Of a DNA stretch of 38,711 bases, positions 1,453 to 15,925 are shown one piece after another. Source of the DNA: an uncultured archaeon. GTDB lineage: Archaea; Hydrothermarchaeota; Hydrothermarchaeia; Hydrothermarchaeales; CAZSVW01. The notes beneath the pieces are model-generated. The model did not search any database and was not told the origin of the DNA. It saw only the letters and a program-made list of their open reading frames with translations. The DNA lies in contig CBFDVL010000001.1 of the NCBI GenBank assembly GCA_965613365.1, forward strand, positions 1 to 38,711, written 5' to 3'. The position numbers and the translations under genes were made by a program. Position 1 is the first letter of the stretch. The number at the start of each line of letters is the position of its first letter.

Positions 1453-1624
1453 GTTTTGCCTCCTTCTGCAATCTTTCATCTAAAGTTCCATCGGGAAGCA
1501 TCCAATCTGGATGCACCTTGCCCTTCTCTTCCATTTGATAACGAATACAACTTTCCCAATCTCCTTTACAGTACAATTCTATCCACTTCTTATCTAACTT
1601 TCCTTTCTCATAAAACCTTTTCAT
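1430..1624 (-). CDS. Small conserved-looking Cys-containing hypothetical protein (64 aa).
   Basis: The ORF contains YCKGDWESCIRYQMEEKGKVHPDWMLPDG and is co-oriented with the MBL gene, overlapping its start by 23 nt. No function can be assigned from the sequence. Confidence 0.5.
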   Translation of the reverse strand: MKRFYEKGKLDKKWIELYCKGDWESCIRYQMEEKGKVHPDWMLPDGTLDERLQKEAKHESYDYL

Positions 1625-2455
1625 TGGACATTCCTGAGGATAAGGAAAGTTCCAGAAAAACCATGCTCTACAGGTTTCTGTCGAGAATAGAAGATAAGAG
1701 TTTCATTAACGTGATTTTGAGAATTCTAAACAAGCAGTGCGGGAGGAGAAGAAGAGGGAGAGCTTCTATCATAGTAGATTCCACAGACGTTCAGCTTGAC
1801 ATAAACTACTTTCGCAGGAGAATAAAGAAGGAAGATCTAGAGGATAGAGAGTTCAAGTGGGGCTACTCGCCCTCAAAAGGATACTACGTCGGCTACAAGC
1901 TCACTGTTGCTATAGACAAGAGCAATCTGATGCCCTTAGCCTTTCTTTTGCACGAGGGTTCGCCAAACGATGCCAAGCTTTTCTATCAGATATTGAAAGA
2001 GCTGAAAAAGAGGAGGGTAATCAGAAAAGGGGATGTTGTGATAGCAGATAAAGGTTACTACAGCTACAAAAACTACTTGAAAGGCATTACAAGGTTCAGA
2101 ATCGTTCCCTTAATTTCCAAGGAAGAACTTCAGTTTAAGCAGAGCTTTAGGTTTACTCTCCTATCCTCTGGATGTGTTTTGCTCCAATAGTCTTAGAAAG
2201 GATGTTTTCATAAAGTTGGCAAGGAAATTCGGGGAGATGATTTTAAAATGGGAGAGATACAGATCTATAAGAAGTAGAATGGAGGATTTGTTTAAGCTGG
2301 CCAAGAATGCTTTTTCCTTGGATAGATTGCACAGGTATACGAAGAAATCTGTTAAAAAGTTCGTTGGACTGAATGTCCTTTTACTGGGGATGGTTGTTTC
2401 AATGGGAATTAGGAAGAAAGAAGAGCTGCACAGGCTTGTTTACATGTAGATTTTG
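1625..2455 (+). mobile_element. Degraded IS4/IS5-superfamily DDE transposase remnant: N-terminally truncated and frameshifted.
   Basis: Two overlapping ORF pieces (to 2190, and 2174-2449) together carry a DDE_Tnp_1-like pattern: IIVDSTDV (D), VIADKGYYS (D) and RSIRSRMEDLFKLAK (E/K-R). Only about 50 aa precede the first D, so the DNA-binding N-terminus is missing. ORF-track residues encoded by 1456-1624 are just the antisense of the neighbouring gene. I could not find terminal inverted repeats. Confidence 0.7.
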
Positions 2456-2654
2456 GGAGGACCTTATTTTCTCTTATATTCCCTGGAATTTGTTTCACTG
2501 CTTCGCCTATAATCTCAAGGTTCCTTAAATACGGCATCTTTTGTTTTATCGTCTTTCATAAAATCGTCATAAGACATGCCAGAGGTATAAATTTTGATTT
2601 TTCTAATACACTCGAGTATATCAGCTATAAAATATCTCCAGTTCTTTTAGACAT
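2455..2654 (-). pseudogene. HEPN (DUF86-type) toxin gene remnant. It has at least two frameshifts and its 3' part is replaced by the IS remnant.
   Basis: An ATG at 2654-2652 follows AGGAGG and overlaps the MNT stop, the typical MNT-HEPN arrangement. Pieces read across shifted frames are MSKR / NWRYFIADILECIRKIKIYTSGMSYDDFMKDDKTKDAVF / NLEIIGEAVKQIPGNIRE. The sequence then runs into the end of the transposase, before the Rx4-6H catalytic motif. Confidence 0.65.
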
Positions 2655-2943
2655 AAACTAAATCCTCCTTTATACTGTTCCAAAGCAAGGGTTTTTGCTT
2701 TACTGCTTTGATTGTAAGCAGGTCAATTTTCACATCCAAGAGTTTTTCAAGTTCATCCCAGAGTTCAAAGAACTTAAATCCTATCGGTTTCTCAAGTTCA
2801 ACTAATATATCCACATCACTTATAGGAGTTTGCTCATCTCTTGCGTAAGACCCAAATATCCCAAGAATAACTACTCCATATTTCTTTCTTATCTCTTCTT
2901 TACACTGTGCAAGTATGCTCTTTATTTCTGTGAGGGTTTTCAT
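2647..2943 (-). CDS. MNT-type nucleotidyltransferase, the antitoxin partner of HEPN.
   Basis: Contains GIFGSYARDEQTPISDVDILV, matching the GS-x(n)-DxD minimal nucleotidyltransferase signature. Length 98 aa. Confidence 0.85.
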   Translation of the reverse strand: MKTLTEIKSILAQCKEEIRKKYGVVILGIFGSYARDEQTPISDVDILVELEKPIGFKFFELWDELEKLLDVKIDLLTIKAVKQKPLLWNSIKEDLVYV

Positions 2944-3007
2944 TTAAACAACCTCTTTTGCTTTTTATATAATTATTTTCAATTTAAATTTTAATATTCT
3001 TTTCTGC

Positions 3008-6000
3008 TTAGCGGAAAGAAAATATTTTTTCTAAAACCTTTCTTTTTCCCTTCGCCTTCTCCAGAATCTCGGGAAGATTCCATACTGGTTTGAGCTTTAT
3101 CGCCTTGGTGGGACATACCTCTTCGCATTTTCTGCAACCTATGCAGAATAGGGCATTGTAGCTTATCTTTCCAAACCCATATGCTTTTTCTTCGGTAACT
3201 ATAACCTTCGCATGTTTTCTTTTAATTTTTTGAATTATCTCTATAAGCATTTTAATTTTTTCAGGTTTTTCTTCCATCGCTTCATACTTTTGCAAGTCTA
3301 TAACGCCAGAAAAAGTTAAGGCATCATCTGGGCAAACTTCTTCACAAGCTCTACATGCTATGCATTTTGTATTATCGCATTCAACCGTTACAAACCCGGG
3401 AAGCTCCTTTCTTTTAACCAAGGGTTCCCATTCTTTATCTATCTCTGTAACCTTAATCTCTCTCGGAGTTACCTTGTAGGATTCAAGAACATCGATAATC
3501 TTTTTAAGTTTCTCAATGTCCTCTCTTTCAAGATTAATATTCCTAATTCTACTCAAAAGTGTTTTAGCTTTTTCATTTTCCAGTAAAGATAGCGTTTTCT
3601 CAAGTCTTGCGAGAATTTCTTCTCGGGAAGGCTCAGATTCATATAAAGCCTTTATCTTAGCTATTTCCTGCTCATCCTTAAAGTGAAGAGCCTGAATAGC
3701 CCCTACTGGACATTCTGCTACACAAGCTCCGCATCCCTTGCAAAGAGCCTCGTTGATTTTTGCCACAATTTTACCAGAGTTATTAATTGTAAGCACAGGC
3801 GCATTGTAAGGACAAGCATCCAAACATACCCCGCAAGCAAGACAAAGTTCCTCATCGACCTTGGCGATACTTCCCTCTGCAATAACCTCTCCTTTAACAA
3901 GAGATATTAATGCGCGAGAAGCTGCTCCGAGAGCTTGGGATATACTATCCTGAATATTCTTTGGAAAGGAGGCAACACCACAAACATATATTCCCTCGGT
4001 GGCAAATTCCACCGGCTTAAGCTTGAGATGCGCCTCAAGGAAAAATCCATTCGCATCTAAGGGAACCTTAAGCATCTTAGAAAGCTCCTTATTTTCTTTA
4101 TGTGGAATTATAGGTGTTGAGAGCACAACTTTATCTACAATAAGCTTGACCTTTCGGTCAAGCGAGGGAGAATAAACCTCAATACTTAGCTTTTCTCCTT
4201 CCTTTTTGACCTCTGGGGGAGAATCTTCGCGGTATCTCAGGAATTTTATACCTTTTTCAAGAGCTAGGGAATAAAGCTCCTCTTCACCCTGACCAAAAGT
4301 TCTTATATCCCTGTAAATTATGAAGACCTCGCTATTGTTGAGATTTTTAATCTCTATCGCATTTTTTATTGCATTATAGCAACAAATTCTCCCACAATAT
4401 TGTCTTTCCTTATCTCTTGCTCCCACACAAAGTATTATCGCATAGCTTTTTTCAACTTTGCCTTTCTTTAATTCTTGCTCAAGTTCAAAAACCGTTATAA
4501 CGTCTTCATACTCTCCATAACCATAATGACCAAAAGGTTTAAGAATTTCTCCTCCGGTCGCTAAGATTATACTACCAACGGTTATTTCCTTATCCCCAAG
4601 CCTCACCTGAAAGTTTCCTACATAACCTGAGATATCCTTAATTGTGGTTGAAGCGTAAATTTCGATGTTTTCATGGTTTTTAACCTTTTCAATTAAAGAC
4701 TTAACAATTTCTTCTCCATTTTTAAGTTCTCTTGCTATTCCTCCAAGCTCTTTCTCCTTCTCCACGAGATAAACCTTAAATCCATGATTAGCTATGCTTA
4801 GAGCACAACTCATTCCCGCTACTCCTCCACCTATTACAAGAGCAGAGGGAGTAACGGGTATTCTGTAATCATGCAAAGGTTCTAACAACCTCGCCTTTGC
4901 TACAGCCATTCTTACTAAATCCTTGGCTTTTTCGGTAGCCTTCTCGGGCTCGTTCGCATGAACCCAAGAGACGTGTTCTCTAATATTGCACATTTCAAAT
5001 AGGTAGGGATTGAGCTTAGCCTCTTTCAAAGTTTTTCTGAAAAGAGCTTCATGCGTTCTTGGTGTGCATGCAGCTATAACAATGCGGTTTAGCTTATGCT
5101 CCCCTATCGCTTTCTTTATCTTCTCTTGAGAATCGATCGAACATGCAAAAAGGCAATCTTCAGCATGCTTTACATAAGGCAAGCTTTTAGCATACTCAAC
5201 CAGAGCTTTGCAATCAACTACGCCAGCGATATTTTTACCACAGTGGCAAATGAACACGCCTATCCTCGGCTCTTTGCTTAGCTCTTTTTCTGGTACCTCT
5301 TTCTCTTCTTCTTGTTTTTTCTCTGGTATGCCAAGAAGCTCGGAAACCTTTGCACTCGCAGAAGAAGCGAGAGCGACAGAATCGGGAATATCCCTCGGAG
5401 ATAAAGCTACTCCGGCTATAAATATTCCCTCTCTACTCGTCTCCATGGGTGAGAGGTCTATGTTTCTGGGCTTGAAAAAGCCGTATTCGTCGGTTTCTAT
5501 TCCCAAAATCTCCGCAAGTTTTCTATTATCCTTGGGAGCAACGAGCGCTGAACTCAAAACTACAAGCTCAACCTCTAACTCCTTAGTCTCGTTGCTCTCG
5601 GTATCCTCGTATCTAAGAATAAGATTGTTGTTTTCTGTTTCTATTATTCTGGAAACCCTGCTTCTTATGTATTTTATGCCATTCGCTTTTGCTTGCTGAT
5701 AATATTCTTCAAAGCCCTTACCATAAGCTCTTAAATCCATGTAAAAAATGTAGCTTTCAAGCTTTGGATTATGCTCCTTGGCTATCATAGCTTGCTTGGT
5801 TGCAAACATACAGCAAACCCTTGAGCAATACTTATTGCATTTAACATCTCTTGAACCTACGCATTGTAACCAAGCTATTTTCTTAGCTTCCCTACCATCA
5901 CTAGGTCTAACCACTTTACCTTGAGTTGGACCACTAGCTGAGAGCAAACGTTCAAATTGTAGCGAGGTTATAACATTTTTATAAACCCCATAGCCATATT

Positions 6001-6604
6001 CTGGCTTAGCCCTTGGGTCAAACTCCTCGAAGCCTGTAGCAACTATTATTGCACCAACGTTAAGCTCTACTTCTTCTTCACCAGCGTTGAAATCTATGGC
6101 ATCGGCTTCGCATACTAACGAGCAAAGCCTACAACCAATGCATGCTTCCTCATCTATCTTATAGACTAAAGGAAAAGCCTGAGGAAAGGCTACGTAAATC
6201 GCCTTTCTTGCTCCTAAGCTAAGGTCAAACTCGTTTTCTTTAACCACTGGGCAAACGTCAGCACATGCTCCACAACCCGTGCATTTCTCGGGGTCTACAA
6301 AGGTTTTTTTTCTTTTAACCTTTACCTTAAAATCTCCAGCTTTTCCCTTAACCTCAACGACCTCGGAATTAACGAAAACCTTAACATTTGCATGTCTTCC
6401 AACTTCGACCATTCTCGGAGCAAGAATACAGGTGGAACAATCATTTGTGGGGAAAGTCTTGTCAAGTCTTGCCATATTTCCGCCTATGCTTGGTGTTTTC
6501 TCCACAAGAAATACGTCGTAGCCCTTATCAGCTAAATCAAGGGTTGCTTGCATCCCAGCGACTCCACCGCCTATTACTAAGCAAGCTTTAACCTTGTTTT
6601 GCAT
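3008..6604 (-). CDS. hdrA: Giant HdrA-like flavoprotein (1198 aa): two tandem HdrA-type FAD units with ferredoxin domains and an extra C-terminal di-ferredoxin tail.
   Basis: Two GGGVAGM Rossmann motifs are present (N-terminus and about aa 600). HdrA-type signatures seen: DCSTCILAP, CSRVCC/CGRICC and GVFICHCGKNI. There are multiple CxxCxxCxxxC(P) motifs, including CIACRACEEVCP and CIGCRKCEEVCP in the tail. Confidence 0.85.
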   Translation of the reverse strand: MQNKVKACLVIGGGVAGMQATLDLADKGYDVFLVEKTPSIGGNMARLDKTFPTNDCSTCILAPRMVEVGRHANVKVFVNSEVVEVKGKAGDFKVKVKRKKTFVDPEKCTGCGACADVCPVVKENEFDLSLGARKAIYVAFPQAFPLVYKIDEEACIGCRLCSLVCEADAIDFNAGEEEVELNVGAIIVATGFEEFDPRAKPEYGYGVYKNVITSLQFERLLSASGPTQGKVVRPSDGREAKKIAWLQCVGSRDVKCNKYCSRVCCMFATKQAMIAKEHNPKLESYIFYMDLRAYGKGFEEYYQQAKANGIKYIRSRVSRIIETENNNLILRYEDTESNETKELEVELVVLSSALVAPKDNRKLAEILGIETDEYGFFKPRNIDLSPMETSREGIFIAGVALSPRDIPDSVALASSASAKVSELLGIPEKKQEEEKEVPEKELSKEPRIGVFICHCGKNIAGVVDCKALVEYAKSLPYVKHAEDCLFACSIDSQEKIKKAIGEHKLNRIVIAACTPRTHEALFRKTLKEAKLNPYLFEMCNIREHVSWVHANEPEKATEKAKDLVRMAVAKARLLEPLHDYRIPVTPSALVIGGGVAGMSCALSIANHGFKVYLVEKEKELGGIARELKNGEEIVKSLIEKVKNHENIEIYASTTIKDISGYVGNFQVRLGDKEITVGSIILATGGEILKPFGHYGYGEYEDVITVFELEQELKKGKVEKSYAIILCVGARDKERQYCGRICCYNAIKNAIEIKNLNNSEVFIIYRDIRTFGQGEEELYSLALEKGIKFLRYREDSPPEVKKEGEKLSIEVYSPSLDRKVKLIVDKVVLSTPIIPHKENKELSKMLKVPLDANGFFLEAHLKLKPVEFATEGIYVCGVASFPKNIQDSISQALGAASRALISLVKGEVIAEGSIAKVDEELCLACGVCLDACPYNAPVLTINNSGKIVAKINEALCKGCGACVAECPVGAIQALHFKDEQEIAKIKALYESEPSREEILARLEKTLSLLENEKAKTLLSRIRNINLEREDIEKLKKIIDVLESYKVTPREIKVTEIDKEWEPLVKRKELPGFVTVECDNTKCIACRACEEVCPDDALTFSGVIDLQKYEAMEEKPEKIKMLIEIIQKIKRKHAKVIVTEEKAYGFGKISYNALFCIGCRKCEEVCPTKAIKLKPVWNLPEILEKAKGKRKVLEKIFSFR

Positions 6605-7166
6605 TCAACCACCTTTCTAGCTCTTCTAAAGCTTTTTCCTTTTCTTGCTCTGAGCTTACCGCAGAGAGCTGGAGAATGAGCTCAATCAGCCTTCTTCTTT
6701 TTGGCGGAAGTTTTTCCGCCTCCTCGCTAAGCTTAATCTTTCTTGAACTTCTATATCTTAAGGGGGAAGCTCCAAGCTCTTTTATCTCCGCAACAAAATC
6801 TTCAACAACTCTCTGGAATTTTTTTCCTTCTGAAGCCGAAACCCATTCAAGCCTAAGCCTTTTTGGATTTATACCTATACTCTCCATTAAATTTCTTACA
6901 AACTCCACTCTTCTCTTTGCCATTAGATTTCCGGTTATGTAATGACATTCGCCTGGGTGGCAACCTGAGATTAAAACACCGTCAGCACCAGCAAGAAATG
7001 CTTCAAGGATAAAATTTATGTCTATTCTACCAGTACACATCACTCTTTGTATTCTTATGTTCGCTGGATATTGAAGTCTGCTAACCCCAGCCAAATCTGC
7101 TCCGGCATAGCTACACCAGTTGCAAAGAAAGGCAATGATTTTTGGTTGAAAGTTCTCATTGTTCAT
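6588..7166 (-). CDS. mvhD: MvhD/FlpD-like protein (methyl-viologen-reducing hydrogenase delta-subunit family).
   Basis: Reads IIAFLCNWCSYAGADLAG...RVMCTGRID...GADGVLISGCHPGECHY, the typical MvhD Cys pattern. It overlaps both neighbours (11 and 17 nt). Confidence 0.85.
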   Translation of the reverse strand: MNNENFQPKIIAFLCNWCSYAGADLAGVSRLQYPANIRIQRVMCTGRIDINFILEAFLAGADGVLISGCHPGECHYITGNLMAKRRVEFVRNLMESIGINPKRLRLEWVSASEGKKFQRVVEDFVAEIKELGASPLRYRSSRKIKLSEEAEKLPPKRRRLIELILQLSAVSSEQEKEKALEELERWLNAKQG

Positions 7167-9036
7167 CGTTCATCCTCCTTACTTTTTCAACATATCTTTT
7201 TGCCTCATATCCAAAAAGATATAGAGACTCAACTTTTTTACCCAATCCTATTTCTTCTAAGATAGCGTTAGCCAGCTTGACCTGAGTTTCAGCATATTCG
7301 TTACCTTTTAAATAATGACATCCTCCTTCTCCACAGCCTGTTATCAAAACCTTCTCTGCTCCAAGCTCAATGGCTTTGAGAATTTCAACCACAGAGAGTC
7401 TGCCAACACAAGGCAAAGGAACGGGCAAAATATTCGCTGGATAAGTATAGCCTAAGGCTCCGGCCATGTCTATAGCCGAGTACCCACATTCATAGCAAAC
7501 AAAATTTACAATTGGCTTCTCTATCTCTGTATCTTTGAGAAGTCCCTCAAGATATGCAAATGTTTCTTCTTTGTTATTGAGCGGTAACTCAATTGCATTA
7601 TAAAGGCAGGAAGCAAGGCATATTCCGCAAGCTTTACATTCAAGTTCATTTATCTTTGCTTTGCCATTGCTCATTATAATAGCGTTGTGCGGGCAAACCT
7701 TAGCACATATTTCACAACCAACACAAAGTTTCTCATTTACTCTTGCAGAAGCTTTTTTCTCCTCGAGACTTTTCAACATTTTTATTACCTTTGCTACAGC
7801 TGCCTCGCTTTCTGCTATGCGTTCTTCTTCATCCTTTATACCGGTTGCACCTCCGCATACATATACTCCAAGCTTTTTAGTTTCCACTGTTCTGAGTTTT
7901 GAATAAAGCCTTTTAAAGAAACCATATTTGTTTAGCTCAATTCCTAAAATCTTCGCAAGTCTCCTATTGTCCTTCGCGGGTATAAAGGCACTTGCCAAAA
8001 CCCCAAGGTCTGCTTTAATATTAATAAAATCCTGAGTTAGGGTATCTTCGATTGCTATAAGCAAATTTCCATTCTCTGAAGCTATTGAGGAGGGCTTGCC
8101 ACGAATAAATCTTATTCCGAGTTCTCTTGCTTCCTTGAAATATTTTTCATTTTTCCCATAGGTTCTTATATCCATGTAGCAGATGATAACGCTTGCCTTG
8201 GGGTTCGTTTTTTTGATCTCGATCGCATTTTTTATAGCTAATGTGCAACAAATCTTAGAACAATACTCATGATAGCTATCTCTTGACCCAACGCATAAAA
8301 TAAAAACGACTTTTTCTATGTCTTTGAGTTTTTCTATGTCTTTATCTTTATACAAGATCTCTGCAAGCTCGCTCTGGGTTATAACATTTTTATAAACCCC
8401 ATAGCCATATTGCTTTATTTCATAGGGTTTCCATTCTTCAAAGCCTGTAGCAACTATTATTGCACCAACGTTAAGAGTTTTTTTAACACCATCGTTTGAG
8501 ATTAGTACTTTAAAATTACCCGCAGAACCAGAGATCTCTTCAATCTCAGAGCTTTCAACAACGTACGAAGTATAACCAAGGTTTTTGAGTTTTAAATTTG
8601 CGTGAAGACCTTCTTTTGTATTACCTATTATGAGAACGCTTTTTTTTACTTTTGATTCCTCAGAGTCAAAAGCAAAGGTTTTAGACTTTTTTATTTTTTC
8701 GATGCCCGCCTTTATTAGCGCCTTTGCTTTTTTGTTTGCCTCTATCTTATTGTCTCTATGAGGATAGGCACATTGCTCTCTTATATTCACGAATTCTAAC
8801 CTAGCTTTCGCATGTCTTTTAAATCTCTCTCCATAAATCTGGGGAGAGCAGGCAGAGATTACAATTTTCTCTTCCTTGCATTTGCTTAACTCTTGCAAGC
8901 CTTCCTTAAGGCAAAGGTTATTGTGGATTTTTACAAATTCCACACCCTCTATACCTTTAATATACTCCGCAATCTCCTCAAGGTTGAGAACCTTTGAAAT
9001 CTCGCCATTACATGAGCAGAGAAAAACGCCTACCAT
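7156..9036 (-). CDS. HdrA-like protein with a degenerate dinucleotide-binding motif, a C-terminal 2x[4Fe-4S] ferredoxin and a fused MvhD domain.
   Basis: The N-terminal domain reads MVGVFLCSCNGEI. IIGNTKEG stands where the paralogues have IIGGGVAG. The ferredoxin motifs are CVGCEICAKVCP and CKACGICLASC. The C-terminus (FVCYECGYSAIDMAG...CVGRLS...ITGCGEGGCHY) is MvhD-like. Confidence 0.8.
   Translation of the reverse strand: MVGVFLCSCNGEISKVLNLEEIAEYIKGIEGVEFVKIHNNLCLKEGLQELSKCKEEKIVISACSPQIYGERFKRHAKARLEFVNIREQCAYPHRDNKIEANKKAKALIKAGIEKIKKSKTFAFDSEESKVKKSVLIIGNTKEGLHANLKLKNLGYTSYVVESSEIEEISGSAGNFKVLISNDGVKKTLNVGAIIVATGFEEWKPYEIKQYGYGVYKNVITQSELAEILYKDKDIEKLKDIEKVVFILCVGSRDSYHEYCSKICCTLAIKNAIEIKKTNPKASVIICYMDIRTYGKNEKYFKEARELGIRFIRGKPSSIASENGNLLIAIEDTLTQDFINIKADLGVLASAFIPAKDNRRLAKILGIELNKYGFFKRLYSKLRTVETKKLGVYVCGGATGIKDEEERIAESEAAVAKVIKMLKSLEEKKASARVNEKLCVGCEICAKVCPHNAIIMSNGKAKINELECKACGICLASCLYNAIELPLNNKEETFAYLEGLLKDTEIEKPIVNFVCYECGYSAIDMAGALGYTYPANILPVPLPCVGRLSVVEILKAIELGAEKVLITGCGEGGCHYLKGNEYAETQVKLANAILEEIGLGKKVESLYLFGYEAKRYVEKVRRMNDEQ
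8243..8475. repeat. Copy A of a 233-bp, 100% identical direct repeat shared by two adjacent HdrA-like genes.
   Basis: A base-by-base comparison with 9493-9725 (offset exactly 1250 bp) shows no mismatch. Flanking bases differ on both sides (8242 t vs 9492 g; 8476 a vs 9726 c). Confidence 0.95.
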
Positions 9037-10259
9037 TACCTTAAGTCCTCCATCACATTTATAGCTACTTGAGACGCTTGAGTAATGCTTTCAGGCACAT
9101 CTTTTATGCCTGAGGCACAACCGCAAACATATACCCCTGCTCTTGCCTTTCCACCATTTTCTGTTATGATAAATCCATATTCATCTTTATTTAGACCTAA
9201 AAGCTTTGCTATTTCTTCTGTCCCCTTTGATGGGATTAAAGCAGGGGTTAGAACTACCAAATCGCACTCTATAAGCTTAACCTCATTGCAAAGCGTATCT
9301 TCTACGCTCACTAAAAGCTTCTTATCTTCTCTTTGAATGACCTCTCCAGGCTTGCCTCGAAGGAATTCTACACCTTCCTCTCTTGCTCGTAGATACCACT
9401 CCTCATATTCACCTACGGTTCTTATATCCATGTAGCAGATTATGACTTCCTTGCCAAGCTTTTTTAAAGCTCTCGCATGCTTTATCGCATAGGTGCAACA
9501 AATCTTAGAACAATACTCATGATAGCTATCTCTTGACCCAACGCATAAAATAAAAACGACTTTTTCTATGTCTTTGAGTTTTTCTATGTCTTTATCTTTA
9601 TACAAGATCTCTGCAAGCTCGCTCTGGGTTATAACATTTTTATAAACCCCATAGCCATATTGCTTTATTTCATAGGGTTTCCATTCTTCAAAGCCTGTAG
9701 CAACTATTATTGCACCAACGTTAAGCTCTACTTCTTCCTCGCTTTGCTCAAGGTTTATGGCTCCTTGCTTGCATACTTCAACACAAGCCTTACAATGGCT
9801 ACACTTATTAATATCAATAGTGCAAACCTGAGGCAATGTTCTATAATCAAAATAAATAGCACCGCTTTTACAAACTTCAATGCAAGCCTTACAGAGAGTG
9901 CATTTATTAATGTCTATGTAACGAGGATGTTTTATCAGCCTAACTAGAAAATTTCCTTTTTCCCCTTTCACTTCGGCTAAGGAAGTATTGGTTAGGATGT
10001 CAAGATTTTTAATCTCGCTTAGACTCAAACGATAGAAGCACTTTCTTATGCCTTTAAGAAATTGTGGCGAAGCGAGACAAAAGGAACAATCTTTGGTGGG
10101 GAAATATTCATATAAGTTCAAAGCATTTCCACCAAGATAGGGCTTTTTCTCAACGAGATAAACTTCAAAACCAAGCTCCGCTAATTCTATGCTTGCTTGC
10201 AGTCCGGCTACTCCTCCACCAATAATGAGGACTTTTTTATTCATGCTTTCATTTTTCAC
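9036..10259 (-). CDS. hdrA: HdrA-like FAD (TrxR-like) unit with an inserted 2x[4Fe-4S] ferredoxin.
   Basis: Contains VLIIGGGVAGLQASIELA, DCSFCLASP, CTLCKACIEVC, CSHCKACVEVC and CSKICC. Its stop overlaps the next gene's start as TAATG at 9034-9038. Confidence 0.8.
   Translation of the reverse strand: MKNESMNKKVLIIGGGVAGLQASIELAELGFEVYLVEKKPYLGGNALNLYEYFPTKDCSFCLASPQFLKGIRKCFYRLSLSEIKNLDILTNTSLAEVKGEKGNFLVRLIKHPRYIDINKCTLCKACIEVCKSGAIYFDYRTLPQVCTIDINKCSHCKACVEVCKQGAINLEQSEEEVELNVGAIIVATGFEEWKPYEIKQYGYGVYKNVITQSELAEILYKDKDIEKLKDIEKVVFILCVGSRDSYHEYCSKICCTYAIKHARALKKLGKEVIICYMDIRTVGEYEEWYLRAREEGVEFLRGKPGEVIQREDKKLLVSVEDTLCNEVKLIECDLVVLTPALIPSKGTEEIAKLLGLNKDEYGFIITENGGKARAGVYVCGCASGIKDVPESITQASQVAINVMEDLR
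9493..9725. repeat. Copy B of the 233-bp identical direct repeat.
   Basis: Identical to 8243-8475. Both copies encode ...NVGAIIVATGFEEWKPYEIKQYGYGVYKNVITQSELAEILYKDKDIEKLKDIEKVVFILCVGSRDSYHEYCSKICCT. Sub-blocks of 35 and 47 nt recur at 5965-5999 and 6029-6075 in the 1198-aa gene. Confidence 0.95.
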
Positions 10260-10268
10260 AATTATTTA

Positions 10269-10793
10269 TCATGATTTATCATTATTGAAAATCGCGCAAG
10301 CTTTAGAAGGCCTGTCATGATTTGATAATCCGAGTTCCTTTGCAATCCTTCTTACTTCCTGCTTTGTTATGCCAAGCTCCGCCAACGGACTTCTTATTCC
10401 AAGTTCTCTCAAAGCTTTTATTCCCGGTCTATGGGAGTGCAAATCATCCTTGTTTGTTCCATCGACTATTGTTTTTATTCCTCTATCTCTTGCGATTTTT
10501 ATAATGTTTTGCATCATGGCCTTTTTGCAATAGTAACATTTTTTATCCTCGCTTTTGTAGAATTCCTCTGGTAGCTTGTGTTCAAATATTATAAGCTCTA
10601 TTCCGATCTCTCTCGCAATCTTTATGGCATGCTCAAGTTCTTCTAATGGAAGAAGCTCGGAAATTGCAATAGCTGCAACCGCATTACCTTTCAAAACATC
10701 AAAGGCAACCTTGGCAACTACACTGCTATCCACACCACCAGAAAAGGCAACGAGCACAGAGGTTTTATCTCGAAACCATAAGAAAAGCTCCAT
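10269..10793 (-). CDS. PP-loop ATP pyrophosphatase of the LarE/COG1606 type (sulfur-transferase family), unusually short.
   Basis: Contains VLVAFSGGVDSS (SGGxDS PP-loop), CYYCKK, VDGTNKDD and RPSKAC. The protein stops about 8 aa after the LarE-type PSxAC cysteine, at 174 aa, where family members as I recall them are about 260 aa. Confidence 0.65.
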   Translation of the reverse strand: MELFLWFRDKTSVLVAFSGGVDSSVVAKVAFDVLKGNAVAAIAISELLPLEELEHAIKIAREIGIELIIFEHKLPEEFYKSEDKKCYYCKKAMMQNIIKIARDRGIKTIVDGTNKDDLHSHRPGIKALRELGIRSPLAELGITKQEVRRIAKELGLSNHDRPSKACAIFNNDKS

Positions 10794-10799
10794 GTTTAA

Positions 10800-10825
10800 C
10801 TTTTTTATATCTTGGATATAAAAAG
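10800..10825. promoter_or_regulatory. Palindromic AT-rich element in a 37-bp divergent intergenic region; candidate back-to-back TATA boxes.
   Basis: Reads cTTTTTTATATC-ttg-GATATAAAAAg, with 8-bp perfect arms (TTTATATC/GATATAAA), centred at 10813. That is 20 nt from the ATG at 10793 (minus strand) and 18 nt from the ATG at 10831 (plus strand). Each TATA-like arm sits about 21-31 nt upstream of one start codon. Confidence 0.5.
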
Positions 10826-10830
10826 TTTAA

Positions 10831-11886
10831 ATGATGCTTTACCTTGTAAGATATGACGAAATAGCTTTGAAGTCCGAGCATGTAAGAAAAAAATGGGAAG
10901 AAGTTTTGATAAAAAACATAGAGCAAGCAATAGATTGCAGCATAAGTAGAGAAAGGGGAAGAATCTGGGTTTATAGCGAAGATGAGAAAGCTAAGGAAAA
11001 GCTGAGAAAAATCTTTGGAATTACATCTTTTTCTCCTTGCATAAGCTGTGAGCTTGGCAATTTAAAGCATGAGGCTATGAAATTTGCTGGGGAGGTTTTA
11101 AAGGATAAGAAAAGCTTTGCCCTTCGTGTAAAAAGAGTAGGTAAGCATAGCTTCACCTCAATAGATGTAGCAAGAGAGCTTGGAGAAGAGATAATAAACA
11201 AAATTCCAATAAAAGTAGATTTAAAATCTCCAGAAAAGGAAGTTTTCATAGAAATTAGAGAAAACCGATGCTACATCTACGATGAGATTATACCTGGAGT
11301 CGGAGGACTGCCTCTTGGGGTAGAAGGGAAGGTAATCTCTCTATTCTCTGGAGGGATAGACTCGGGCGTTGCGACTTGGTTAATGATGAAAAGAGGCTGC
11401 GAGGTCATGCTTGTGCATTTTTATATAAGCAAAGAGAGCTACGAATCCGCATGCCTATGCTATGAGGTTTTAAAAGAATATAATCCCGAGCTTAAGCTTA
11501 TAAAGATCGAGCATTCTGATTTTCTAAGGAAAATTGATAAGCAAAATTATACGTGCATACTATGTAAGAGAGAGATGCTGAGAAAGGCTCAAGAAATAGC
11601 TATTGAAATAGGAGCTAAAGGAATAGTAACGGGAGACTCTCTTGGTCAGGTAGCTTCTCAGACCCTTGATAATCTATTTGTGATAAGCCAAGCTATTTAT
11701 TACCCAATCTACAGACCTCTGATAGGAATGGACAAACAGGAAATTATTTCGCTTGCCAGAAAAATCGGAACCTACGAGAAATATCTCGAAGCTCCTCAGC
11801 TTTCTTGTCCATATGCTCCAAAGAAACCCGTGGTAAAGGCAGAGCTTGATAAGGTTTTGGAGATTGAGAAATGCTTAAAGAGGTAG
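10831..11886 (+). CDS. thiI: tRNA 4-thiouridine/thiamine sulfur-transfer protein ThiI (THUMP plus PP-loop, no rhodanese domain).
   Basis: Contains YDEIALKS..., the LFSGGIDSGV PP-loop, CILCKREM (CxxC) and a third Cys in LSCPYAPKKP. This matches the three-Cys archaeal ThiI type. Confidence 0.85.
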   Translation: MMLYLVRYDEIALKSEHVRKKWEEVLIKNIEQAIDCSISRERGRIWVYSEDEKAKEKLRKIFGITSFSPCISCELGNLKHEAMKFAGEVLKDKKSFALRVKRVGKHSFTSIDVARELGEEIINKIPIKVDLKSPEKEVFIEIRENRCYIYDEIIPGVGGLPLGVEGKVISLFSGGIDSGVATWLMMKRGCEVMLVHFYISKESYESACLCYEVLKEYNPELKLIKIEHSDFLRKIDKQNYTCILCKREMLRKAQEIAIEIGAKGIVTGDSLGQVASQTLDNLFVISQAIYYPIYRPLIGMDKQEIISLARKIGTYEKYLEAPQLSCPYAPKKPVVKAELDKVLEIEKCLKR

Positions 11887-11888
11887 AG

Positions 11889-12545
11889 ATGATAAAATCT
11901 GGGAAAAAGTTGAAAGATTATATTGCAGAGGATATTAGGTTTAAGCTTGTAATAAATGGCAAAAGCTTTACCTTCAGAATATCGCCCATGCTCAAGGAGG
12001 AGTTTGTCATAGGATATTGCTTTGGAGAAGGTCTTATAGAAGACCTTGAGGATTTTAAGGAAATAAAAATTGAAAAAAATGTAGCCAAAGTTAAAATTAA
12101 TATTAAAAAGAGGAAATTATCCAAAATAAACTCTGATCTGGTTGTATCCTACAAAGAAATAATCGAAAGCATGGAAAGACTTAAAAACGAATCAGAAACC
12201 TGGAGGAAAACCGGTGGAGTGCACATTTCTGCCATTGTTAGCGGGGAAGAGTTTATTTTGGTGGAGGATATTAATAGACATGCATGTATAGATAAGCTTT
12301 TGGGAATAGCTTTGAAAAGGAGCTTAAAGTTCTCAAACTCCTACGTGGTTTGCAGTGGAAGATTATCCGAAGGGAGAGTTAAAAAGATAATTATGGCGGG
12401 CGTGCCAATAATTGCTTCGATGGCAGCGCCTTTATTCTCTAGTGTCGAATGCGCAAAAAAATATGGGCTAACTCTCGCAGGTTTTGTGAGAAATGGAAAA
12501 ATTAATATATATTCTTGCCCTGAAAGAATTAGAAACGAGGTGTAA
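11889..12545 (+). CDS. fdhD: FdhD-family protein (Mo-bisPGD sulfuration/insertion accessory) lacking the CxxC loop.
   Basis: Contains FVIGYCFGEGLI, TGGVHISA, NRHACIDKLLG, CSGRLS and LTLAGFVR. The ATG at 11889 is preceded by GAGGT; an alternative in-frame ATG lies at 11871. Confidence 0.75.
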   Translation: MIKSGKKLKDYIAEDIRFKLVINGKSFTFRISPMLKEEFVIGYCFGEGLIEDLEDFKEIKIEKNVAKVKINIKKRKLSKINSDLVVSYKEIIESMERLKNESETWRKTGGVHISAIVSGEEFILVEDINRHACIDKLLGIALKRSLKFSNSYVVCSGRLSEGRVKKIIMAGVPIIASMAAPLFSSVECAKKYGLTLAGFVRNGKINIYSCPERIRNEV

Positions 12546-12547
12546 AA

Positions 12548-12985
12548 ATGGAAGTGGAAGGATTTGAACTTAGGGAAGATTTGTACTATGACCCATGGGG
12601 CGCATACATTTGGGCTAAGGTTGAAGGAGACATGGTAATTGTAGGAATAACCCCGTTAGGAGTAGCGGTTGCAAAAGACTTTGCTTATATGGAGCTTCCT
12701 TTTGAGGGGGATGAAGTCAAGCAAGAAGAAGCCTTCGGAGTAATTGAAACGATCAAAGCCACGGGTGAGCTTCTTGCTCCAGTTAGTGGAGAAGTGGCAG
12801 AGGTAAATGAAGAGGTAAGAAGCGACCCTGCAAGCATAAAAGAAGCACCTTACGAAAAATGGTTAATCAAAATAAAGCCTTCTAACTTGGAAGAGGAACT
12901 TAAAAACTTAATGGACTTCGAAAAAGCCAAAGAATGGTATGCTGAAGAAATTAAAAAGCTTAGAGAAGACGAAGTAATAGAATAA
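12548..12985 (+). CDS. GcvH-like lipoyl-carrier protein.
   Basis: Contains GVIETIKATGELLAPVSGEVAEVNEEV...PYEKWLIKI, the GcvH lipoyl-lysine signature (E-x-x-K ... PVSG-x-V-x-E-x-N). GAGGTG precedes the ATG. Confidence 0.8.
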   Translation: MEVEGFELREDLYYDPWGAYIWAKVEGDMVIVGITPLGVAVAKDFAYMELPFEGDEVKQEEAFGVIETIKATGELLAPVSGEVAEVNEEVRSDPASIKEAPYEKWLIKIKPSNLEEELKNLMDFEKAKEWYAEEIKKLREDEVIE

Positions 12986-13123
12986 TTCTTTTCTTTTTTA
13001 TTATTTTAGAAAATATATTTCTAAAAGAGTGAAAAGAAGCATTTTAAATTTAATTTAATCAAAAGATTTAAATAGGTTTTAGATATAAGTTAAATAATAC
13101 CGGTGAAGGAGGTGAAGTGTCGG

Positions 13124-15925
13124 ATGAGCGAAAATTTTTCGGAATTTATGAAAGACAGAGCTAAGGTGTTTAAATTTCTTTCGGCAATCTACAGAGACGA
13201 AATACCAAAAGAACTTCTAAGTAAGATGAAGGATGAGAAATTTTTGACAGCGATTTCAAAGGTTCCCGGAGGAGAAAAACTCGCTGAAGTTATGAAAGAT
13301 GCAGATGTAGATAAGGTTTTTAATGAGCTTAGATATGAATATGCAGATATCTTTTTGAATGCTGGTGTAACTCCAGTTTTTCCATACGAATCAGTTTACG
13401 TAACCGGCGAACCATTAGTAATGCAAAAGCCAGTTTTTGAAGTAAGAAAATTTTTCAGAGAGGCTGGAGTACATAAATCAGAAGACTACCCTGACTTAGA
13501 TGACCACATTGCAGTAGAATTTGAATTCATGAGGTATCTCTGTGAGAACGAGAAAGTAGAGCTACAGGCAAACTTTGTGGCCGAGCATTTCAAATGGATG
13601 AAGGACTTCTGCGACAACCTGAAGAAATATTCTCAAGCAGATTTCTACAAGGCTGTAGCAGAATTAACTGAAAGCATAGTTTCAATGGAAGAGAAAATAG
13701 TAGATGACATAAAAAATTCTAAACTTCCAGAAGCATCAATTGTAGATGCAATAAAAGCTATCGCAGAAGCAGTGAATGTACTTGACATTGGAGATGAATA
13801 TGTAACCATAAAAGAGGGAGCCAAGCCTGAGGAACCAGAAAAGATAATAAATACTCATTGCTATCTCTGTGGTGGATTATGCGGCCTGAGAATAACAGTG
13901 AAAGATGGCATAATGGTAAAGGTCGCTGGCTTACCAGGAGACCCAAAAAGTGGAGGAATGATATGTCCGAAGGGAGCTTCGAACATACAGCACACTTATA
14001 GTGCCTATAGATTAAAGTGGCCTCTAATAAAAGAAAATGGAAGGTTTAGAAAAGCTACTTGGGAAGAAGCTATGTCAAAGTTTGCAGAGTTGCTCAAGAG
14101 TATAGAACCTTCAAAGGTAGGCTTCCTGAGAGGCAATAATTTCAATGCTTGGCTAACTGCGGGCGTTTTCAAAGCCTATGGAGCTTATGTAACTACCCAT
14201 AGGCCAATGTGCGATAACAGCATAAGAATGGCCAATGAACATAACCTTAATGACAAGAGACCATGGATAGATTATAGGGAGTCTGATTATATCATTCTCT
14301 GGGGAGTAAATGAAACGTGCACTTCCTATGGAAGAAGGAAAGTAAAGTTCTTCCAAGACGCTCTCAAGAGAGGAGCAAAACTTGTGGTATTTGATACAAG
14401 GAAAAGCGAGGTTGCAGAGCTTGCAGATGAATGGATCGCTCCAAAGCCTGGCACAGATGGCGCAATAGCAATGGCAATGTGCTATGTGATAGTGAAGAAT
14501 GAGCTTTACAATAAAGAATTCGTTGAAAACTGGACATATGGTTTTGAGGACTTCAAGAAAAGATTACTTGGTGAAGAAGATGGAGTGCCAAGAACTCCGG
14601 AATGGGCTGAAAAGATAAGTGGCGTGCCAGCAGCTACGATAGAAAGAATAGCAATAGAATTTGCAAACGCAAAGCATCCAGCAACAATATGCTGGGCAGG
14701 TATAGCCCAGACTCCAAATGGATTCTATGCTACACAGGCAATAATGGCATTAAATGGATTAATGGGGACATTTGATGCACCCGGAGGGCCAAGCCTACCA
14801 TTCAAGCGCAAGCTAAAGAGCCCATTTGGAGATGGGCCCAAGCTACCAAACAACTCACCAAAGGAAAAGCTTGATAAGGCAAAGATGTGGGCTGGATGGA
14901 TTCCCGCATACTTCCCGAGGGATGTTGAGGAAGGTAAGCTTCAGGCTTTGGTATGCTATTGGGGTTCTCCAGTATTGTCATGGACTAATCAAGACGCCGC
15001 AATAGAAGCTCTCAAGAAGCTTAAATTCATAGTGACGATAGACGCTTTTATGAATAACACCGCAACACTGAGCGACCTCGTAATTCCAAGCGTATCGAGC
15101 TTAGAAATGGAGTGGATCCATCCAGATTGGTTATATGATGCCTTCATATCTTCGCATAGAAGAGCAATAGACCCGCTATTCAATTGCAAGCCAGAATGGT
15201 GGATCTTCATAGACTTGGCTAAGAGACTCGGATTTGGAGAATACTTCCCATCCGATGACATAGAATACTACCTCAGAAACATGCTAAAAGGTACGCCATG
15301 GGATTATGATGAACTCATGGAAAAAGGCTATATAATAACGGATAAGGCAGAATACTACAAATACAAGAAGTGGGGTAGCCTTAATCCACCAGAAGGTTAT
15401 GGCTCATCAGGCAAAACCAAGACGGGCAAATATAACTTCAAGAATCCAGTAGCAGAGGAAAAGGGCATAGACCCGCTTCCAGACTACAAGCCTATCGAAG
15501 AAGAGTATCCAGAGCTTGTACCCGACGAGAAGTATCCACTTATTGCTCAGAGCTTTAGATTGTTGCAACATGAGCATAGCTCAACCTTTAATAATCCATA
15601 CTTAATGAAACTTAGAGGAACAAATCCACTTTGGATTAATCCTCTAGATGCCAAGGAGAGAGGAATCGAGAACGGAGATAAGGTGATAATCGAATCTCCA
15701 TGGGGCAAGGCAGAAGCTACCGCTTATGTAACATGGAAAATTAGACAAGGTGTAGTAGGTGCTGCGGGCGGCTTTGGACACTGGCGTGGATTAGAAGCAG
15801 ACCCAAGGTTCCCGCAGTATGGTGGATTTAACATCGGCGGACTAATGCCTCCGAACTATCCAGATAAATATGGCGGAAATCCTCTCTTGAAATACATAAA
15901 AGTGAACGTCAGAAAAGCAGAGTAA
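13124..15925 (+). CDS. Fusion protein: a TorD/DmsD/NarJ-type chaperone domain (about 230 aa) joined to a molybdopterin (MopB/DMSO-reductase superfamily) catalytic subunit.
   Basis: N-terminal part: RAKVFKFLSAIYRDE...ELRYEYADIFLNAG...PYESVY...DDHIAVEFEFMRYL (TorD-like). This is followed by HCYLCGGLCGLRI...ICPKG (an N-terminal CxxCxxxC...C 4Fe-4S motif), a candidate Mo-ligand Cys in THRPMCDNS, and a MopB C-terminal barrel (INPLDAKERGIENGDKVIIESPWG). No RRxF twin-arginine motif is visible. The ATG at 13124 follows GAAGGAGGTGAAG. Confidence 0.8.
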   Translation: MSENFSEFMKDRAKVFKFLSAIYRDEIPKELLSKMKDEKFLTAISKVPGGEKLAEVMKDADVDKVFNELRYEYADIFLNAGVTPVFPYESVYVTGEPLVMQKPVFEVRKFFREAGVHKSEDYPDLDDHIAVEFEFMRYLCENEKVELQANFVAEHFKWMKDFCDNLKKYSQADFYKAVAELTESIVSMEEKIVDDIKNSKLPEASIVDAIKAIAEAVNVLDIGDEYVTIKEGAKPEEPEKIINTHCYLCGGLCGLRITVKDGIMVKVAGLPGDPKSGGMICPKGASNIQHTYSAYRLKWPLIKENGRFRKATWEEAMSKFAELLKSIEPSKVGFLRGNNFNAWLTAGVFKAYGAYVTTHRPMCDNSIRMANEHNLNDKRPWIDYRESDYIILWGVNETCTSYGRRKVKFFQDALKRGAKLVVFDTRKSEVAELADEWIAPKPGTDGAIAMAMCYVIVKNELYNKEFVENWTYGFEDFKKRLLGEEDGVPRTPEWAEKISGVPAATIERIAIEFANAKHPATICWAGIAQTPNGFYATQAIMALNGLMGTFDAPGGPSLPFKRKLKSPFGDGPKLPNNSPKEKLDKAKMWAGWIPAYFPRDVEEGKLQALVCYWGSPVLSWTNQDAAIEALKKLKFIVTIDAFMNNTATLSDLVIPSVSSLEMEWIHPDWLYDAFISSHRRAIDPLFNCKPEWWIFIDLAKRLGFGEYFPSDDIEYYLRNMLKGTPWDYDELMEKGYIITDKAEYYKYKKWGSLNPPEGYGSSGKTKTGKYNFKNPVAEEKGIDPLPDYKPIEEEYPELVPDEKYPLIAQSFRLLQHEHSSTFNNPYLMKLRGTNPLWINPLDAKERGIENGDKVIIESPWGKAEATAYVTWKIRQGVVGAAGGFGHWRGLEADPRFPQYGGFNIGGLMPPNYPDKYGGNPLLKYIKVNVRKAE

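Follow-up and report, generated by a model that had tools for sequence, protein, structure and literature searches.

A four-gene cluster on the minus strand (positions 3008–10259) of contig CBFDVL010000001.1, from an uncultured Hydrothermarchaeales archaeon (assembly GCA_965613365.1), is likely, with a probability of about 0.7, to encode the flavin and iron–sulfur (Fe-S) core of a soluble heterodisulfide reductase (Hdr)-type bifurcating or confurcating system. This core would consist of two asymmetric HdrA 'dimers', one split over two proteins and the other fused in one chain, and its partners would be HdrC/HdrB (or HdrD), FrhB and HdrA2. The stretch analysed, referred to as the window, comprises 38,711 nucleotides (nt) of this contig. 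The domain content and motifs of the four proteins, the synteny with related loci and a gene conversion tract between the two split genes are direct observations.

Proteins were assigned to families by Pfam, NCBIfam and PDB sequence searches together with motif positions, and neighbourhood maps were drawn with our own open reading frame (ORF)/phmmer pipeline, with Pfam and NCBIfam spot checks. The related genomes are all fragmented metagenome-assembled genomes, and class-level phyletic counts were taken over 38 genomes; f1 denotes the family of the window genome, f11 and f12 its sister families, and L and G numbers stand for related loci and genomes. The host assembly amounts to 1.39 Mb in 156 contigs, with a completeness of ~98%. 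Archaeal gene content includes HerA-NurA-Rad50-Mre11 and DUF2226. The four genes and the parts of the longest product are as follows (lengths in amino acids, aa).

9036..10259, minus strand: P0001, 407 aa, A6-type HdrA with a GTG start (Pfam, NCBIfam and PDB matches, motifs)
7156..9036, minus strand: P0002, 626 aa, A12-type HdrA fused to MvhD (Pfam, NCBIfam and PDB matches, motifs)
6588..7166, minus strand: P0003, 192 aa, free MvhD, a [2Fe-2S] adaptor (Pfam FlpD, 189 bits)
3008..6604, minus strand: P0004, 1198 aa, fused double HdrA with a tail (PDB match, motifs)
5315..6604, minus strand: module 1 of P0004, aa 1–430 (E 1.5e-148 to 5odc_A residues 145–562)
3650..5272, minus strand: module 2 of P0004, aa ~445–985 (PDB match, motifs)
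3008..3637, minus strand: tail of P0004, aa ~990–1198 (motifs at aa 1081 and 1154, homology to free ferredoxins)

In the ORF listing the four genes overlap successively by 1, 11 and 17 nt. The original prediction, made from the sequence without database searches, had described four overlapping, co-oriented genes for proteins of 407, 626, 192 and 1198 aa, and both this layout and the domain make-up given for the four proteins were borne out, the latter by Pfam, NCBIfam and PDB searches and by motifs. All four proteins belong to the HdrA/MvhD family. The two further CxxCxxCxxxCP motifs ascribed to the tail of the 1198-aa protein are also present, in a segment of ~210 aa rather than ~240 aa.

P0001 carries GGGVAG, DCSFC (corresponding to Cys194/Cys197 of solved HdrA) and CVGSRD..YCSKICC, and its two CxxCxxCxxxC motifs, at residues 120 and 153, represent a 2x[4Fe-4S] ferredoxin inserted in a thioredoxin reductase (TrxR)-like core for flavin adenine dinucleotide (FAD). 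It has neither an N-domain nor a C-terminal ferredoxin, and aligns to residues 143–566 of solved HdrA with E 1e-77 to 1e-87 (2e-87 when membership of HdrA was assessed against chains 5odc/8rvu/9sfi). P0002 reads, in order, as an HdrA N-terminal Fe-S domain, a flavin-type core, a C-terminal 2x[4Fe-4S] ferredoxin (motifs at 438 and 467) and an MvhD domain (FlpD, PF02662, at residues 509–624, 102 bits); the core matches the same solved chains at E 5e-83 and is without Cys197 and without the inserted ferredoxin. The two genes, adjacent, overlapping and complementary in Cys197 and N-domain, thereby have the form of a tandem A6 + A12 HdrA. All Fe-S ligands and MvhD motifs are retained in the pair, and the [4Fe-4S] ligands Cys386/399/403/404 (CVGSRD...YCxxxCC) occur in all four flavin cores of the cluster. 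The Lys409 equivalent is kept in both P0001 and P0002; the A12M proteins of the sister families, which are the counterparts of P0002, have Asp or Glu at this position. GxGxxG is found in P0001 and in both modules of P0004, while the P0002 core reads IIGNTKEG instead, gave no Pyr_redox match in Pfam, and is shorter than its orthologues by ~45 aa that include EKxxxLGG. Orthologues in G001 and G035–G037 have intact FAD motifs, and the lesion recurs in protein P0136 of an independent metagenome contig, L099.

The fused protein P0004 matches HdrA chain 5odc_A in three stretches (E 2.6e-232), with GGGVAG at 12 and 592, a single DCSTC at 55, and six CxxCxxCxxxC motifs at 108, 155, 921, 955, 1081 and 1154. 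Module 1 combines an A6-like flavin core with DCSTC, the inserted ferredoxin and equivalents of Glu356 and Lys409, and has no N-domain; module 2 consists of an N-domain, a second flavin core in which the Glu356 and Lys409 equivalents are kept, and a C-terminal ferredoxin, and is without Cys197 and the inserted ferredoxin. With two TrxR cores, DCSTC only in module 1 and an N-domain only before module 2, P0004 is of the type II (fused) HdrA form. Thousands of ~1000-aa proteins are related to it, at 49–55% identity over ~82% of its length, and span Archaeoglobus, Bathyarchaeia, Methanomassiliicoccales, Asgard lineages and others; some of them have a C-terminal MvhD. In the tail, a helical linker of ~90 aa is followed by a 2x[4Fe-4S] ferredoxin that bears the two CxxCxxCxxxCP motifs. 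Its best PDB matches are ferredoxins of the FwdF/NuoI type, and it is homologous to free 2x[4Fe-4S] ferredoxins of 154–161 aa encoded after hdrA2 in G036/G037, and likewise to a free 157-aa ferredoxin of L103. Outside family f1, the tail is shared by P0008/P0131 only. P0003 is covered by FlpD (PF02662) at residues 10–132. It also has a helical, basic C-terminal extension of ~55 aa (window 6588–6750). MvhD proteins of family f1 share this extension, those of the order's other families lack it, and it recalls the extended adaptor BamF of class II benzoyl-CoA reductase.

The tandem and fused asymmetric HdrA design has already been published, and the architecture itself is not new. In the tandem HdrA5/6 and HdrA12/13 described by Chadwick et al. 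2022 (PMC9012536), one protein has the N-domain without Cys197 and the other the reverse, from which those authors deduce a heterodimer lacking the two-fold symmetry seen in the solved HdrA dimer; fused HdrA3/4 shows equal complementarity. P0001 and P0002 resemble these tandem proteins (A6, A12) in adjacency, overlap and complementarity, but differ in the MvhD fusion and degenerate FAD motifs of P0002, in a shared 233-nt tract, and in standing in one operon with a type II gene. The fused form was named type II HdrA by Lyu, Yu & Lu 2025 (PMC12054007), who derive it from the type I classes A6 and A12 and report it in clusters with mvhD, fdhB/frhB, a molybdopterin protein, hdrBC or hdrD, and a further HdrA. 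P0004 likewise has two TrxR-type cores in complementary modules, with Lys409 and Glu356 in both, and the clusters of its relatives (mvhD, frhB/fdhB-like, hdrD/hdrBC, HdrA) are as published. It differs by its ~210 aa of linker and 2x[4Fe-4S] tail and by its host, a non-methanogen without McrA; moreover, the window holds no frhB or hdrBC, and its molybdenum (Mo) enzyme is TorD-fused, PsrA/PhsA/FdhA-like and on the opposite strand. The published cluster includes a non-catalytic FdhA homologue.

A further parallel is offered by BamE from the class II benzoyl-CoA reductase of Geobacter metallireducens, which was shown by cryo-electron microscopy to be a fused HdrA dimer (bioRxiv 10.64898/2026.04.10.717634). 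Only its TrxR1 has a bifurcating FAD (Lys280), TrxR2 is structural (Gln768), and BamF acts as an extended MvhD adaptor (bioRxiv 10.64898/2026.04.10.717634). This combination of a fused dimer with a longer-than-usual MvhD adaptor is paralleled by P0004 with P0003, and the structural second flavin domain by P0001 with the FAD-motif-less P0002; in contrast to the Gln of TrxR2, P0004 keeps Lys in both modules, and the likeness is one of description, with no BamE chain among the PDB matches. BamB/C (the AOR-type tungsten enzyme), BamD and BamGHI are not among the window ORFs, the rest of the genome not having been searched for them. With HdrA2B2C2 of Methanosarcina acetivorans (PMC5296606) and with HdrABC-MvhAGD (PDB 5ODC), the system shares the flavin/Fe-S core, the MvhD fusion and an FrhB-type input from coenzyme F420, whereas the window proteins split the HdrA domains over two modules and belong to a genome without MvhAG and without Mcr.

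A model of heterodimer formation, electron paths and substrates can be drawn by analogy with the solved HdrA and BamE structures and with the published comparative work. The predicted assembly of P0001 and P0002 is a heterodimer equivalent to one asymmetric HdrA dimer, in which P0001 would provide FAD, the CxxC pair Cys58/Cys61 (Cys194/Cys197) and, in its inserted ferredoxin, the low-potential exit towards ferredoxin. P0002 would provide the N-terminal Fe-S domain, the cluster of which would be completed by Cys61 of P0001, the Cys197 equivalent; its C-terminal ferredoxin would serve as the route towards HdrC/HdrB and its built-in MvhD as the [2Fe-2S] entry. Electrons would accordingly run from the MvhD domain through the N-domain cluster to the FAD of P0001, and would split there between the inserted ferredoxin (to ferredoxin) and the C-terminal ferredoxin of P0002 (to HdrC/HdrB). 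Because the P0002 flavin site has decayed, as judged by motifs, it is probably empty or purely structural and the pair would hold one working FAD, a situation comparable to BamE, where only TrxR1 bifurcates. P0004 with P0003 would be the covalently linked version, with two flavin sites that are intact by sequence and with the free MvhD as adaptor, and the ferredoxin tail may wire the fused protein to a further partner. The predicted partners are the disulfide reductase subunits HdrC/HdrB (or HdrD), an FrhB-type F420 subunit, which would supply or accept F420 electrons, and HdrA2, so that the net reaction would interconvert reduced F420 (F420H2), ferredoxin and a thiol/disulfide couple. The disulfide of coenzyme M and coenzyme B (CoM-S-S-CoB) is an improbable substrate, because McrA was not found in the host genome.

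The kinds of partner can be named because such genes adjoin the cluster in relatives. In L027 (GCA_053937045.1), hdrC-hdrB-frhB-hdrA2 begins 0.9 kb downstream in the same orientation, and the order is [pair]-mvhD-typeII+tail-MNT-HepT-hdrC-hdrB-frhB-hdrA2-GGR. Ten loci from other families of the order read hdrD-frhB-typeII(~1005 aa, no tail)-mvhD-hdrA2, in full or as far as the contig extends, with hdrD-frhB directly upstream of the fused gene. In the sister families f11/f12 and in contig L101 the order is gcvH-hdrC-hdrB-A6-A12M-hdrA2-(free ferredoxin)-hdrC-hdrB, and two hdrCB sets flank the pair in G036. As the original prediction had stated, no gene for HdrB/HdrC, a hydrogenase or FdhB/FrhB (the Fdh beta type) was found by Pfam scans anywhere among the ORFs of the 38.7-kb window. 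Its description of the locus as 'HdrA/MvhD-only' with an unidentified partner could not be upheld, hdrBC being conserved near neighbours in L027 and the sister families, and hdrD-frhB in other families; of the two gene sets whose conserved proximity it had named as evidence to the contrary, hdrBC was thus found and mvhAG was not, the latter being absent from the genome.

HdrB and HdrC are encoded in the host genome on contigs other than that of the window. Two canonical hdrA2 loci lie elsewhere in the genome, on contig C28 in the order hdrC-hdrB-frhB-hdrA2(800 aa)-GGR and on contig C18 in the order mtd-polyferredoxin-frhB-like-hdrA2(787 aa). Genes of F420 and tetrahydromethanopterin metabolism (Mtd, FrhB-like) are present in this genome, GcvT and an Mvh-type hydrogenase (mvhAG) were not found in it, and its sole clear [NiFe] hydrogenase is of the membrane-bound type, with a cytochrome b subunit and no MvhD neighbour. 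The genes that flank the cluster on either side within the window are listed below.

1456..2449, plus strand: ORFs of an insertion sequence (IS) element, DDE transposase, 244 + 91 aa (Pfam DDE_Tnp_1)
2467..2646, minus strand: hepT remnant at the 3' end of the operon, forming a mobile toxin–antitoxin cassette with MNT
2647..2943, minus strand: MNT antitoxin gene at the 3' end of the operon (Pfam)
10269..10793, minus strand: LarE-like PP-loop sulfur transferase, 174 aa (NCBIfam TIGR00268 LarE, 180.7 bits against a cut-off of 150)
10831..11886, plus strand: ThiI, divergent arm (Pfam/NCBIfam)
11871..12545, plus strand: FdhD, divergent arm (Pfam/NCBIfam)
12548..12985, plus strand: GcvH-like lipoyl protein, divergent arm (Pfam/NCBIfam)
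13103..15925, plus strand: TorD-fused molybdenum/tungsten bis-pyranopterin guanine dinucleotide (Mo/W-bisPGD) oxidoreductase, 940 aa, divergent arm (Pfam/NCBIfam)

The hepT gene of the window is cut near residue 63 (position 2467), exactly where the IS transposase ORFs start, and the alignment with L027 ends there. The L027 hdrC and 80 nt upstream of it align to host contig C28 with 81% DNA identity. Because hepT shows this IS-associated break and the block is syntenic in L027, we attribute the absence of hdrBC and frhB from the window to a local, IS-associated rearrangement that moved the block to C28. The MNT-HepT cassette (window 2467–3010; L027 6100–6660) is 99–100% identical in DNA to that of GCA_053937045.1 and the adjoining type II hdrA ~72%, which indicates that the cassette moved or recombined recently. 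In L006, a 441-aa ORF (5523–6848) follows the type II hdrA and matches the IS region of the window (2374–2480) at its 3' end (70%, 108 nt). A mobile-element hotspot may exist downstream of type II hdrA.

On the other side, the larE-like gene is the first of the operon and ends 9 nt upstream of the 407-aa gene, a position that it also holds in G001 (L019) and L099. The operon of the larE-like gene and hdrA genes and the thiI-fdhD-gcvH-Mo-enzyme operon diverge from a gap of 37 nt (10794–10830). A gap of this length means that the promoters of both operons must overlap, which suggests shared regulation. The divergent arm (ThiI, FdhD, GcvH-like protein, Mo enzyme) is also present in G001 (L019), and L099 shows it as far as the contig reaches, that is, ThiI and part of FdhD. 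The Mo/W-bisPGD oxidoreductase, kept in the divergent arm of G001, carries an N-terminally fused chaperone domain of the TorD/DmsD type.

Several points weigh against a bifurcating Hdr-type system at this locus. Both P0001 and P0002 have Ala at the position of Glu356, so that the pair may transfer electrons without bifurcating them, and FAD binding by P0002 seems, by its motifs only, to have been lost. Archaeal HdrA of the type II and tandem forms is, according to Lyu, Yu & Lu 2025 (PMC12054007), without biochemistry. In the host genome the hdrCB-frhB-hdrA2 block is not adjacent to the cluster, and around the pair of L103 no hdrBC and no gcvH lie within 8 kb.

The split pair and the fused protein differ in their apparent descent. 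P0001 is 42% identical to module 1 of P0004, and P0002 ~28–34% identical to type II proteins generally. An insertion, GIRKCFYR, is common to the A6 proteins of the window, G001, L027 and f11/f12 and is absent from type II module 1. Full-length orthologues of P0002 occur only in f1, f11 and f12 and type II proteins in f1–f10 (38 genomes of the class), f1 being the only family that holds both the split pair and type II. In a maximum-likelihood tree of 165 flavin-core columns that lie downstream of the conversion tract, the A6 of the pair joins the A12M of the pair (support of 95 in the Shimodaira–Hasegawa-like approximate likelihood ratio test, SH-aLRT) and type II module 2 joins HdrA1-like proteins (97); approximately unbiased (AU) tests leave a grouping of A12M with module 2 unrejected (core, p 0.094; N-domain, p 0.49; C-terminal ferredoxin, p 0.17). 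Judged by these comparisons, the split pair is an old, separate lineage shared with f11/f12 and not a recent copy of the fused gene. Both systems are old, with a common architecture, and have been brought together into one operon in family f1. The earlier view of two versions of one two-part HdrA module thus stands for the architecture and fails for recent descent, the pair forming an old separate clade. An origin of the pair as a recent duplicate of the fused gene was ruled out by the low identity, the clade-specific insertion, the phyletic spread and the tree.

Among the alternatives to the bifurcating Hdr-type core, the most credible, though still unlikely, makes the GcvH-like lipoyl protein the working partner of the Hdr genes and the HdrA pair: HdrBC would reduce or oxidise its dithiolane or a sulfur bound to it, and HdrA would couple this to ferredoxin and F420. 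Such a system would be an anaerobic archaeal counterpart of sHdr-LbpA, perhaps fed by the LarE-like, ThiI and FdhD sulfur transferases and the TorD-fused Mo enzyme. The pattern does resemble sHdr-LbpA, and sHdr requires LbpA (PMC6067878). In f5, f11, f12 and L101, hdrC-hdrB is immediately preceded by a gcvH-like gene; the linkage to hdrC-hdrB is seen at L037 1115–1549, L042 5105–5539, L096 1613–2056, L091 241–669, L093 8197–8625 and L101 3–401, and in L100 (174–608) the gene stands beside A6-A12M-MvhD, so that the linkage spans at least five lineages. In the window it is 2.3 kb from the operon, an arrangement repeated in G001. The lipoyl-lysine motif is conserved, the host genome is without GcvT and McrA, and the scores against the NCBIfam GcvH equivalogs are below the cut-offs (110 against 117 and 92 against 116). 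However, the GcvH-like protein is present in 20 of the 38 class genomes, including families without the pair, and L103 has the pair without gcvH. Whereas sHdr-LbpA (hdrC1B1A-hyp-hdrC2B2 with LbpA) involves a lipoyl protein with both the lipoyl Lys and two cysteines, the protein here has the Lys and lacks the two LbpA-typical cysteines, and the HdrA types at this locus differ from the small sHdrA. Pfam found no lipoate ligase, DsrE or TusA among the window ORFs, the rest of the genome not having been searched for them. A fuller version, in which the GcvH-like protein would be the thiol/disulfide partner of HdrBC together with the HdrA pair and type II, while recurrent conversion keeps a flavin-core segment of the pair identical, is equally unlikely. 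An exclusive association of the GcvH-like protein with the pair was also considered, and the spread over 20 of 38 genomes speaks against it.

Less probable again is a QmoA/QmoB-like role, in which P0001 and P0002 would pass electrons without bifurcation to an enzyme of sulfur metabolism, such as the TorD-fused Mo enzyme, independently of HdrBC. The layout of the pair, a ~410-aa flavoprotein with inserted Fe-S motifs followed by an N-domain flavoprotein with a C-terminal MvhD, is that of QmoA and QmoB of sulfate reducers, and the same archaeal order also holds aprB-aprA-qmoA-qmoB-qmoC loci with this two-protein layout. One of these, L045 (G010:C13, 3490–10914), is a bona fide aprB-aprA-qmoA-qmoB-qmoC locus, with AprA, AprB and QmoC above the curated NCBIfam cut-offs; because it scores above them, some relatives in the order are likely to be sulfate reducers. 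A Qmo-like role would also agree with the replacement of Glu356 in both proteins and with the retention of the Mo-enzyme arm in G001 and, up to the contig end, of ThiI and part of FdhD in L099. Yet neither qmoC nor aprAB is near P0001/P0002, the Qmo-like A6 proteins form a separate clade (SH-aLRT 100) distinct from that of the pair, the sister families flank the pair with hdrCB and no Mo enzyme, and the inserted ferredoxin and CxxC pair of bifurcating HdrA are retained.

It is improbable that the split pair is a redundant, decaying duplicate in which relaxed constraint, rather than function, would account for the lost FAD motifs and the homogenised tract. In its favour, P0002 alone is without GxGxxG and ~45 aa and has the highest nonsynonymous share between strains (8/18), and the locus is set among mobile elements. 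When the window was compared with L099 (strains 98.9% identical), the frames of all four genes were intact in both, and the changed codons, given as synonymous to nonsynonymous, were 5:2 in A6, 10:8 in A12M, 9:0 in MvhD and 13:4 in type II. Since the frames are intact and the changed codons mostly synonymous, all four genes look functional, with A12M (P0002) the least constrained. Against decay, two strains preserve both frames of the pair, including the overlap of start and stop codons, every Fe-S ligand and MvhD motif is in place, nonsynonymous changes are below neutral expectation, and, as BamE illustrates, a second flavin domain without catalytic activity can have a structural role.

The two genes of the pair share a segment of exact identity, and a shorter tract of similar kind is found in P0004.

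9493..9725, minus strand: conversion tract, 233 nt, copy in the 407-aa gene (100% identical to 8243–8475)
8243..8475, minus strand: conversion tract, copy in the 626-aa gene (100% identical to 9493–9725)
6024..6079, minus strand: short conversion-like tract in P0004 module 1, 56 nt (95% identical to 9685–9740 in the 407-aa gene)

The 233 nt of identity contrast with a codon-aligned background of 45–65% between the two genes. L099, an independent Joint Genome Institute metagenome contig that is 98.9% identical to the window across 7.6 kb, resolves both copies with unchanged boundaries; its own two copies differ by 3 substitutions and a 12-nt indel, and at one strain-specific site the two copies agree within each strain, with A in the window and G in L099. 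Because L099 repeats the boundaries, and a strain-specific base in both copies, we regard the repeat as real and conversion between the pair genes as ongoing. Similar patches occur in relatives: in L006, A12M and type II module 2 share a 71-nt stretch at 94% identity, and in G036 the A6 and A12M proteins have 30 identical residues in common. That the identity is an artefact of assembling a metagenome-assembled genome can be dismissed as very improbable: all other assemblies of the family do trip at this very tract (G001 has an N-gap with near-identical flanks, the contig of L006 breaks off, and L027 shows a chimeric gene), but the independent contig resolves both copies with equal boundaries, just 3 substitutions and the 12-nt indel between them, and a strain-specific base shared by the copies within each strain (A/A in the window, G/G in L099).

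The 12-nt indel (window 8332–8343 versus L099 ~3878) lies within the conversion tract, inside a tandem AAAGACATAGAAAAA x2 (KDIEKLKDIEK), and looks like replication slippage. The L027 chimera is the first gene of its contig (173–1945) and joins A6 to A12M (T1n - half inserted ferredoxin - T1c - cFd (C-terminal ferredoxin) - MvhD) exactly at the upstream edge of the tract, with both ferredoxin half-motifs collapsed too; it reflects either real unequal recombination or an assembly collapse. In many HdrA2-like and type II frames of relatives (G016:C48, G028:C97, G025:C45, G017:C59, G003:C135, G035:C134 and others) a single in-frame TGA was seen, which may encode selenocysteine, as in some methanogen HdrA/MvhD and in BamF.

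What is new here is the ferredoxin-tailed type II HdrA, the A12-MvhD partner without FAD motifs, the presence of both systems in one operon, and gene conversion within the pair, together with the recurrence of a GcvH-like lipoyl protein beside Hdr genes in a genome without McrA, GcvT and Mvh hydrogenase. Flavin-based bifurcation of the Hdr type is central to anaerobic energy conservation. The repeated gcvH-hdrCB linkage, in a genome without GcvT or Mcr, offers a concrete candidate for the Hdr substrate. With its independent confirmation, the conversion tract provides a clear-cut example of concerted evolution between two subunits that are predicted to pair. Finally, the occurrence of split and fused asymmetric HdrA dimers in one organism, with one flavin site lost by sequence, provides a test of the idea, derived from BamE, that a single flavin of such a dimer bifurcates.

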